DNA of 62,937 nt, the filler included, from Collodictyon triciliatum (lineage: Eukaryota), in NCBI GenBank assembly GCA_043381765.1. It is 8 parts of 8 records of this genome, joined end to end, with 100 filler letters (N's around TTAATTAATTAA, not from the genome) between each part and the next. Parts side by side here need not be neighbours in the genome. Positions count along the whole stretch, not along the records: positions 36,910 to 46,035 come from JBHJMP010003148.1; 7 more parts are not named here. One strand, 5' to 3'. Both the position numbers and the translations under genes were made by a program. Below the pieces are notes generated by a model, which worked only from the letters and a program-made list of their open reading frames with translations, ran no database searches and was not told the origin of the DNA. Below are positions 40,120 to 41,842 of the stretch, in pieces. How positions within the stretch are numbered: position 1 is the first letter of the stretch; each line of letters starts with the position of its first letter.

Positions 40120-41842
40120 CTAGGAGGATGGGACAGATCGGCGGATGTGCCGGACAGTGTGGTTGGAGTGTCCCAGATTCATCTGTGTCATCAGATTGAA
40201 GTCCACCTAGACATGTTTGTTAGTCATGTTGAGATGTTGGGTTGGGTTGGATAGCTTCTTCGTTGTATGTTCATCTCACCCGATAGTTCCACGACCCGCT
40301 GGTCACGCTGCGGACATCGACGATGGGATTCTTTGTCCATTCCTGTGGGTAAGTAGGTGTGAGCGAGTAGCCTAGCATGTGCGTTCATGGTTAACACAGA
40401 AGAAAAACACCCTACGGGTGAGAAACAAGAAACTTCATACTTGGTATGACTTCTCCACTTCCTCTCCTGCTGCGGGGTCGTAATTATGCCAGCCTGGTTT
40501 CTTGCCGTCCACCGAAGTCTCGAGATAGTATTGCCATACCTGAATGCGAACAAGCAGGTATGTGAAAATAGTTATGTGACTATCTTGTTTTATACAGACA
40601 GGCTACTGTTCCGCTGTGATTGAGACGAGGCCATGGTTTGTGTGTTTCTATTGCCTCTTTGGTATTAAATTGGAACAAGATAAAGTGTCGGGGATAATGG
40701 CCAACCGGTTTGTTGGTTTGTCTGGCTTCATAGTTTGTGATGAGCTCTTTGCTAAATATGTTTTCTTCTGGCTCCCACGTCTTTTCGTCCTCGTCAAAGA
40801 CAACCCATTTGATCAAGTAGAACTTCTTGCCCTGAAATAAAACAACAGGTATTAAGAAACACTGAATCAGGGAGGATGCCATTAAAAAAAAAATAATTCA
40901 AGTTTGTATTTACGTGTATTTTCCCTTACCAGATCAGTTTTGCAAGCACGGACCTCCTCCACTTCAAACTCGTCAGAGTCCAAACTGTCATCAGAGTCTT
41001 CAGCATCAGCCTTGGCCTAGATGTTTGCAGCACTTCAGCACAGAGAACATACGACACAAGCCGCATGTGACTCTTATTAAAGCACAGCGATAAAATTACA
41101 ATACCTTGGTGCTGTGGTTCCACGTCGTATTTTTAGAAGCGGGATCATATCCGTCAAGAATGGCGAGTAGGAGAATGAATTGTTGAACCGGTTAGTGAAA
41201 TCCTCGGGATGATATATTGAGGATAGCGTTTGGTTCTGTAAATGATGGCCACCAACCTTCCTTTGGTCTTCTTTGGCTTTGGGGCTTTTTTCTCCTTGGC
41301 AGGTGCTTTCACAGGCTTAATGATCGACTTGGATTTTGGTTTTGCTGTTGTCTTTGGCACAACCTTCGTTTTGCTTTCTGGCTTAGCCTTAGACTTTGCG
41401 ATTTTGGAAGCCTCTTTTCCCTTGGGTTTGGCGACCTGGTCGCGTTGTCATGCATGTTAATATGTCTTTTGCGCACACAAATATAAGGGTTAAAAAAATT
41501 CAACGATGATCAGGAAGTCTATTTGGAAACCTTGGTTGATACTTTGGAAACTTTCTCATCTTTTTTGGCTCCTTTCTTTGTCGCGGCAACTTTCTTCTCT
41601 TCCTTTTCGGTCTTCTTGACAGTTGCGCTCTTCTGCAACGAATGGAAGGGTTAATCGGCGACTCGTCCGACTAAGTTGAGCGGGGGGAAAACTTCGCATA
41701 TAGCAGTACGATACGATCCAGCTTATATCAAAAGAGGGAATATGGATACCCAAAAAAAAAAATATGTACAGTGTGATCAAACCTTCATTTGTGTTTCGTA
41801 TAGTTTGTTGCTCTTCGGGACTGGCTTTAGAATTGCTTTCAT
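40120..41842 (-). CDS. Lys/Ala/Pro-rich basic N-terminus + chromodomain + WWE domain protein
   Basis: Spliced: KSATVKKTEKEEKK...KAPAKEKKAPKPKK; EFEVEEVRACKTDLGKKFYLIKWVVFDEDEKTWEPEENI (chromodomain); VWQYYLETSVDGKKPGWHNYDPAAGEEVEKSYQEWTK...YRVDFNLMTQMN...TVRHIRR (WWE). Start codon uncertain. Confidence 0.85.

Follow-up and report, generated by a model that had tools for sequence, protein, structure and literature searches.

Work in animals on how heterochromatin marks connect to PARP signalling has dealt with many separate proteins; macroH2A1.1, a histone fold joined to a macrodomain, is a chromatin-anchored and non-catalytic reader of ADP-ribose. WWE domains hold their ligands through conserved glutamine-adenine, tyrosine-phosphate and arginine-phosphate contacts (PMC11269756), and in RNF146 the residues Tyr107, Tyr144, Gln153 and Arg163 are described as essential for the binding of iso-ADP-ribose (iso-ADPr) (PMC10793466). 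Here we describe a gene found in 62,937 nucleotides of DNA from the protist Collodictyon triciliatum (assembly GCA_043381765.1, parts of eight records joined end to end; this whole stretch is called the window below), which lies on the minus strand in the part taken from JBHJMP010003148.1. It is a real, expressed protist gene that codes for a chromodomain joined directly to a WWE domain, a new and conserved combination of two well-known reader domains that occurs in several distant protist groups, and its product probably links silent chromatin to ADP-ribose signalling.

First, transcripts establish how the gene is put together. Eight rows from public runs match part of the stretch and four of these (X1 to X4) were aligned to the window; parts of the stretch without X3 or X4 cover were not treated as evidence. 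A single X1 contig of 1350 nucleotides (nt), 95-99% like the window and with a poly(A) run just after 40042, aligns in eight pieces, at 41783-41909, 41531-41632, 41257-41433, 40929-41018, 40704-40830, 40440-40537, 40277-40341 and 40042-40203. Of the seven joints between them, six have CT..AC on the plus strand, which is GT..AG on the strand of the gene, and the seventh (41018 to 41257) reads AG..AC and conceals a microexon. Both the X1 and the X2 contigs carry five extra letters at this joint, which together with two adjoining bases make up a 7-nt microexon, and a scripted search placed these letters at one site within the intron, 41105-41111, between AG and GT. Only with this microexon do the lysine-rich tail and the acidic patch stay in one reading frame. 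The resulting minus-strand model has nine exons, GT..AG at all eight introns and an in-frame coding sequence of 810 nt for a product of 269 amino acids (aa); the preliminary description of this locus had counted eight exons and overlooked the microexon, and the span it gave, 40120-41842, is exactly the coding sequence from stop to ATG.

The remaining transcripts agree with this model. X2, a contig of 685 nt, has the same five 3' joints as X1, the environmental RNA runs X3 and X4 each contain both of the 3'-most WWE joints (40203/40277 and 40341/40440), and joint 41632/41783 is also found in a second X3 contig. Upstream of the ATG, exon 1 holds an in-frame stop (41885-41887). Nine coding positions of the X1 transcript differ from the window, six of them silently, and the three residue changes are all in the tail. 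Because one polyadenylated contig joins all nine exons, the chromodomain and WWE exons belong to one mRNA rather than to separate transcripts. The X1 contig also has 373 more letters at its 5' end that do not match the window near 41909 and could be an upstream exon of the 5' untranslated region (UTR), a leader or a chimera. In the table of open reading frames (ORFs) the gene appears on the minus strand as a set of pieces, namely lysine-rich frames, a frame with the acidic patch followed by EFEVEE, the KWVVFDEDEKTWEPEENI frame and three short frames with WWE motifs. The exon junctions also coincide, by tblastn, with those of P0005, a protein of 201 aa that is the fully spliced product of a paralogous gene from Diphylleia rotans and is 58.9% identical to the window product over 192 aa. 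The exons and their supporting evidence are:

41783..41909, minus strand: exon 1; 5' UTR at least to 41909, ATG at 41842-41840, coding part 41783-41842, aa 1-20 (X1 piece, joint 41632/41783, ORF table, model).
41531..41632, minus strand: exon 2; lysine-rich tail, aa 21-54 (X1 joints 41632/41783 and 41433/41529, cut +2; GT..AG sites).
41257..41435, minus strand: exon 3; tail rich in K, A and P, similar to that of histone H1, aa 55 to about 114 (X1 and X2 pieces; composition).
41105..41111, minus strand: microexon of 7 nt; restores the frame between tail and acidic patch (X1 and X2 joint letters; AG/GT flanks).
40930..41016, minus strand: exon 5; acidic serine-rich patch and first chromodomain strand with cage residue F133, aa 117-145 (ORF 40882-41016, joints, P0005-CBX5 alignment, tblastn).
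40706..40831, minus strand: exon 6; core of the chromodomain, holding W154 and F157 of the cage and TWEPEENI, aa 146-187 (Pfam Chromo; 86% identical to Diphylleia P0001).
40441..40539, minus strand: exon 7; opening third of the WWE domain (W189, Y191, G203-W204, helix), aa 188-220 (Pfam WWE profile positions 2-28; joints in X1 to X4).
40280..40342, minus strand: exon 8; central part of the WWE domain including Y240, aa 221-241 (65% identity to P0005 by tblastn; joints in X1 to X4).
40042..40206, minus strand: exon 9; closing third of the WWE domain including Q249, N251, R260 and R263-R264, aa 242-269; stop at 40120-40122; 3' UTR to the poly(A) site just after 40042 (Pfam WWE profile positions 48-67; X1 poly(A) end).

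Second, the N-terminal part of the protein has the features of an HP1-type reader behind a basic tail. The K/A/P-rich, H1-tail-like region and the acidic patch of the preliminary description are both present, although the region before the chromodomain motif measures 131 aa, compared with the roughly 115 aa claimed for the tail; these 131 residues include 42 lysines, 16 alanines, 13 serines, 10 prolines, 10 threonines and no arginine. When Pfam was run on the seven exon-ORF translations (gathering cut-offs 25.1 bits for Chromo and 21.1 bits for WWE), ORF 40580-40897 matched Chromo (PF00385) at 37.3 bits (E 2.6e-9), passing the cut-off even without the first strand, which sits on the preceding exon; four of the seven pieces had no Pfam match of any kind. 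All three aromatic cage positions are occupied in the nine-exon model, by F133 in EFEVE and by W154 and F157 in KWVVF, and TWEPEENI is also present. With P0005 as query, the top sequence match among solved structures was CBX5 (HP1 alpha; E 5.6e-11), and in this alignment the cage positions pair F with Y, W with W and F with F; the window exons carry the same residues as P0005. An HP1 Y24F cage still binds H3K9me3, according to the title of PDB entry 6asz. This is an HP1-type chromodomain, predicted to read methyl-lysine. No chromoshadow domain (PF01393) was matched by Pfam on the seven exon ORFs or on P0005. Because the C-terminus is instead a WWE domain, the gene product stands outside the HP1 family proper, though HP1-like at one end, which fits the earlier description of an HP1-like protein with a WWE domain replacing the chromoshadow domain.

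Third, the C-terminus is a complete WWE domain split over three exons, as had been proposed. On separate ORFs, the two ends of the domain gave Pfam matches (PF02825) just short of the cut-off, with 17.8 bits for profile positions 2-28 of 67 on ORF 40435-40602 and 17.9 bits for positions 48-67 on ORF 40120-40206, and a local hidden Markov model (HMM) built from 22 related WWE domains scored the spliced window product at 118.5 bits over residues 188-265. In the fully spliced P0005, Pfam matched WWE over positions 3-67 of the 67 in the profile at 50.1 bits (E 3.8e-13) and Chromo at 47.3 bits. Moreover, the profile of the 22 WWE parts matched ten solved WWE sequences at E-values from 6.2e-7 to 0.025, among them PARP11 (6.2e-7), DTX1 (7.9e-7), TRIP12 (9.3e-6) and RNF146 (3.5e-4); the WWE part of P0005, used by itself as a query against the PDB, returned PARP11 only (E 0.021), and an ESM Atlas search gave no usable match.

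A structure model of P0005, built with a 20-row alignment and compared by Foldseek and VIA-align, recovered both the WWE and the HP1 chromodomain folds. Its predicted local distance difference test score (pLDDT) exceeds 90 from about residue 65 to 200 and does not dip at the chromodomain/WWE junction, where the blocks 101-110, 111-120 and 121-130 reach 91, 94 and 95. By VIA-align the model superposes on the Drosophila HP1 chromodomain 1kna with a Z of 10.0 and a root-mean-square deviation (rmsd) of 0.7 over 52 of 52 residues. The WWE part, a half beta-barrel covered by one helix, shows the WWE fold to be present in this stand-in model and is closest to the TRIP12 WWE 9bks (Z 11.4, rmsd 1.8, 71 of 73 residues, 34% identity), followed by HUWE1 (Z 10.4) and by RNF146 with iso-ADPr (3v3l; Z 9.9). 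In line with the earlier claim that no catalytic domain is present, neither RING, HECT, PARP nor any other Pfam family was found on the exons, and the 269 aa are accounted for by the 131 aa of tail and patch, the chromodomain and the WWE domain up to residue 265.

The architecture is not confined to the window. Three proteins among four candidates were matched by the chromodomain exon, and all of them belong to the EukProt transcriptome of Diphylleia rotans; P0001 and P0004 share 84% identity with the window product over 51 aa, resemble it in their K/A/P tail and retain the intron after the chromodomain. Among the Diphylleia isoforms (P0001, P0004, P0002, P0006, P0007 and P0003), several retain an intron after or within the WWE region and would end as chromodomain-only or truncated products, which may reflect either regulated retention of introns or RNA that is still unspliced. 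P0003 as query matched 1451 proteins at E <= 0.001 in an exhaustive HMMER search, the best 150 of which were considered. In local phmmer searches, with each half of P0005 serving as a query, 25 of 154 proteins contained both domains, four of the 25 being isoforms of one Diphylleia gene, and nine contained the WWE domain alone. The aligned members carry their domains on a single chain, with Pfam matches to Chromo in 20 of 20 and to WWE in 18 of 20.

The named sources of chromodomain-WWE proteins are Rhodelphis limneticus, Goniomonas avonlea, Alphamonas edax and three Diphylleia genes, the rest coming from metagenomes and Logan assemblies; Rigifila ramosa has an EF-hand plus a WWE domain. None of the 20 clusters looked up had an NCBI or UniRef source. 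Single transcriptome hits may be prey or contaminant sequences; however, the hits differ from one another. A word-index search (alignment A2) returned 93 rows that were mostly ordinary chromodomain proteins, with Chromo next to PF01393 or other families; only one of them (P0153) had both PF02825 and PF00385 among its precomputed domains and PF02825 occurred in none of the 21 rows of NCBI source, counts that have little bearing on spread as the same search missed known relatives such as P0015. Viral contigs scanned with P0005, a test for close relatives only, gave two pattern matches, neither of which was confirmed by tblastn.

In addition, WWE domains of the same clade keep other company. In other protists and metagenomes they stand C-terminal of a WGR domain (P0075, P0124, P0125, P0139, P0146 and P0157), and a Pfam run on ten WWE-bearing matches included the following arrangements:

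P0075 and P0139: WGR-WWE.
P0124: BRCT-WGR-WWE.
P0146: HC2-like basic region-WGR-WWE.
P0157: linker histone-WGR-WWE.
P0125: Chromo-WGR-WWE.
P0026: PARP regulatory and catalytic domain, preceded by four WWE-WGR pairs.

DVNP proteins of dinoflagellates to which WWE and WGR domains have been added are noted in a preprint (bioRxiv 10.1101/2024.02.09.579734); apart from these, our literature searches gave no description of non-catalytic WGR-WWE proteins. In a tree of 34 WWE rows, five of 31 inner branches are well supported and only the pairing of the window protein with P0005 (99/98) is safe; the WGR- and PARP-linked rows group at 92/82 and are nested among chromodomain-linked rows. As the tree is poorly resolved, no order of events can be read from it.

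The positions that contact ADP-ribose are selectively kept in this WWE clade. An HMM alignment to 3v3l (offset of 98 between chain index and residue number, verified by five named residues) places the invariant Y, Q and R of the family on Y144, Q153 and R163 of RNF146, and the structural alignment of range 101..172 to 117..201 sets Y107 on the tyrosine of the family's WQY motif. The window protein has Y191, Y240, Q249 and R260 at these four positions. Across the 34 WWE rows the combination is Y-Y-Q-R in 28 and F-Y-Q-R in four, compared with a mean column identity of only 47% in the 22-row WWE alignment. P0076, a third chromodomain-WWE paralog of Diphylleia rotans, reads F-C-F-V at the four positions and sits on a very long branch (3.97); from its sequence, it looks like a paralog with a lost ligand pocket.

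We favour, with moderate confidence, a non-catalytic, two-handed chromatin reader or adaptor, in which the tail and chromodomain would sit on methyl-marked nucleosomes and the WWE domain on ADP-ribose made by PARPs. The lysine-rich, arginine-free tail and the acidic patch would make unspecific DNA or nucleosome contacts of the HP1/H1 kind, while the aromatic cage of F133, W154 and F157 would dock on a methylated lysine, probably of the histone H3 tail. About three residues after the C-terminal helix of the chromodomain, the WWE domain would then bind PARP-made ADP-ribose units through Y191, Y240, Q249 and R260, and the protein could thereby hold ADP-ribosylated proteins or poly(ADP-ribose) (PAR) chains at methyl-marked chromatin; alternatively, its own residence on chromatin may change when PAR is made. 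The dual methyl-lysine/PAR reader of the preliminary description gains computational support from the conserved ADP-ribose contacts and the fusion of this WWE clade to WGR, BRCT and PARP domains. Binding of methyl-lysine and of ADP-ribose, a preference for poly- over mono-ADP-ribose and a role in DNA-damage signalling, like the bridging of two ligands and its biological setting, are predictions.

Several observations weigh against this two-handed reader or soften it. Either WWE exon half alone stays below the Pfam cut-off of 21.1 bits, and full-length Pfam scoring and folding used P0005 as a stand-in for the spliced window protein. The predicted methyl-lysine target could be H3K9me, H3K27me or a non-histone lysine, among which the sequence does not discriminate. 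At the ligand pocket, the iso-ADPr preference of RNF146 is ascribed to Tyr107, Arg110, Trp114 and Lys175, with Trp114 being part of the distal-phosphate pocket that confers it (PMC11269756). The Trp114 position is H in the window protein and H or Y in 30 of the 34 rows, and Lys175 has no counterpart because the protein ends before that position. Furthermore, the closest structures are the WWE domains of TRIP12 and HUWE1, which favour ADP-ribose (ADPr) over iso-ADPr (PMC11269756), so this WWE domain may or may not prefer the polymer.

The pocket differences and the structural neighbours, the WWE domains of TRIP12 and HUWE1 whose structures contain ADP, ATP or ADPr, also speak for the main rival, which keeps the same architecture and has the WWE domain read mono-ADP-ribose, chain ends or a free adenine nucleotide (ADPr, ATP) rather than internal iso-ADPr. 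On this view the protein reads chromatin marked by mono-ADP-ribose or senses a metabolite on heterochromatin, which we regard as unlikely, though a reading to be taken seriously. Against it, the Tyr107 equivalent is Y in 29 of the 34 rows, and 24 of them have a lysine matching K200 of the window protein, which lies in the loop preceding the GW motif, the site of Arg110 in RNF146. Moreover, the fusion of the WWE clade to WGR and to a PARP with its regulatory domain is the make-up of polymer-forming DNA-break PARPs.

A second rival does away with the nucleotide ligand, and would make the WWE domain a protein-protein or self-association module that stands in for the chromoshadow domain in an ordinary heterochromatin scaffold. 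The WWE domain is said to have been first proposed, by Aravind in 2001, as a protein interaction module, and the F-C-F-V positions of P0076 suggest that the fold can persist without the pocket. However, the retention of Y-Y-Q-R against the much lower mean column identity means that adenine and phosphate contacts are selectively kept, which is hard to explain without a ligand, and we consider such a scaffold improbable. That the model is an artefact, with separate chromodomain and WWE genes or a retroelement chromodomain beside an unrelated ORF, has next to no probability and is ruled out by the X1 contig, for although the Trinity isoforms P0001, P0004 and P0007 often retain the intron and end after the chromodomain, there are fully spliced, polyadenylated contigs in two runs and partial ones in the two environmental RNA runs, P0005 is a complete spliced chromodomain-WWE transcript, and the aligned relatives bear both domains on one chain.

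The two-handed reader, if correct, would be of interest beyond this locus. According to the preliminary description the architecture is not known to have been characterized, and full-text literature searches likewise gave no description of a chromodomain-WWE fusion among the papers listed and no paper pairing PF02825 with PF00385; nor did they return a chromatin study of CRuMs or other deep protist lineages. One small natural protein appears to join both readers directly. Should both ligands prove true, the protein would provide a small model, and a tool, for the detection of chromatin carrying methyl and ADP-ribose marks together. It would also demonstrate that a WWE domain need not belong to a ubiquitin ligase or a PARP, and open a first way into the chromatin regulation of CRuMs and other deep lineages of protists. 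The patchy distribution of the architecture among protist groups far apart from each other bears on the chromatin machinery of early eukaryotes. More tentatively, and with some doubt on our part, the protein may belong to an ancient and widespread class of non-catalytic proteins of protists that has yet to be described, and in which one ADP-ribose-reading WWE clade is combined with interchangeable chromatin-docking heads (chromodomain, linker histone, BRCT, basic DVNP-like tails or WGR). In that case, a direct physical connection of histone methyl marks to PARP signalling would have been built early in eukaryotes and later lost in animals, fungi and plants, and the chromodomain-WWE unit, joined by three residues, would serve naturally as a rigid, bivalent reader of a combined methyl-lysine and ADP-ribose state.

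A cyclin-like gene at 38876-39956 on the plus strand is convergent with the chromodomain-WWE gene, and its stop lies about 86 nt from the poly(A) site of the latter; a (CAT)n run at about 39600-39672 in the last exon of the cyclin-like gene codes for roughly 25 histidines and is followed by an RS/RE-rich tail. Its best match, P0243, shares a Trinity component number with P0001 and P0004, which suggests a conserved neighbourhood and a diphylleid-like source for the window. Elsewhere in the window there are two sulfotransferase-like ORFs about 3 kb apart on the minus strand (28336-29004 and 31700-32377), an EF-hand ORF on the plus strand (11421-12371), a mucin-like ORF on the minus strand (46434-47249) and an ORF of 632 aa (34280-36178) with no Pfam match.

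Finally, the window protein can be set beside the systems it most resembles. Like HP1/CBX5, it is small and non-catalytic and has an acidic patch just before a chromodomain with three cage aromatics; unlike HP1/CBX5, it has no chromoshadow domain, its WWE domain starts within some three residues of the chromodomain where HP1/CBX5 has a long hinge, and its basic region is N-terminal to the chromodomain instead of in the hinge. Its WWE domain shares the fold of those in TRIP12, HUWE1, RNF146, DTX1 and PARP11 (Z 11.4 to 9.9) and keeps the equivalents of RNF146 Y107, Y144, Q153 and R163. However, those proteins carry HECT, RING or PARP catalytic domains and the window protein has none, and its WWE domain differs from theirs in an insertion of about eight residues after the first strand, in H or Y at the Trp114 position and in the absence of a C-terminal Lys175 loop. 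The logic of macroH2A1.1, in which a chromatin-docking part is combined with an ADP-ribose-binding part and no enzyme activity, would be the same here, but docking would rely on the reading of a histone mark, the second part is a WWE domain instead of a macrodomain and there is no sequence relationship. The protist WGR-WWE proteins (P0146, P0157, P0124, P0139 and P0075) have a C-terminal WWE domain of the same clade behind a basic or chromatin-binding part; in contrast to these, and to the chromodomain-WGR-WWE arrangement of P0125, the window protein and its near relatives dispense with WGR and have the chromodomain abut the WWE domain directly.

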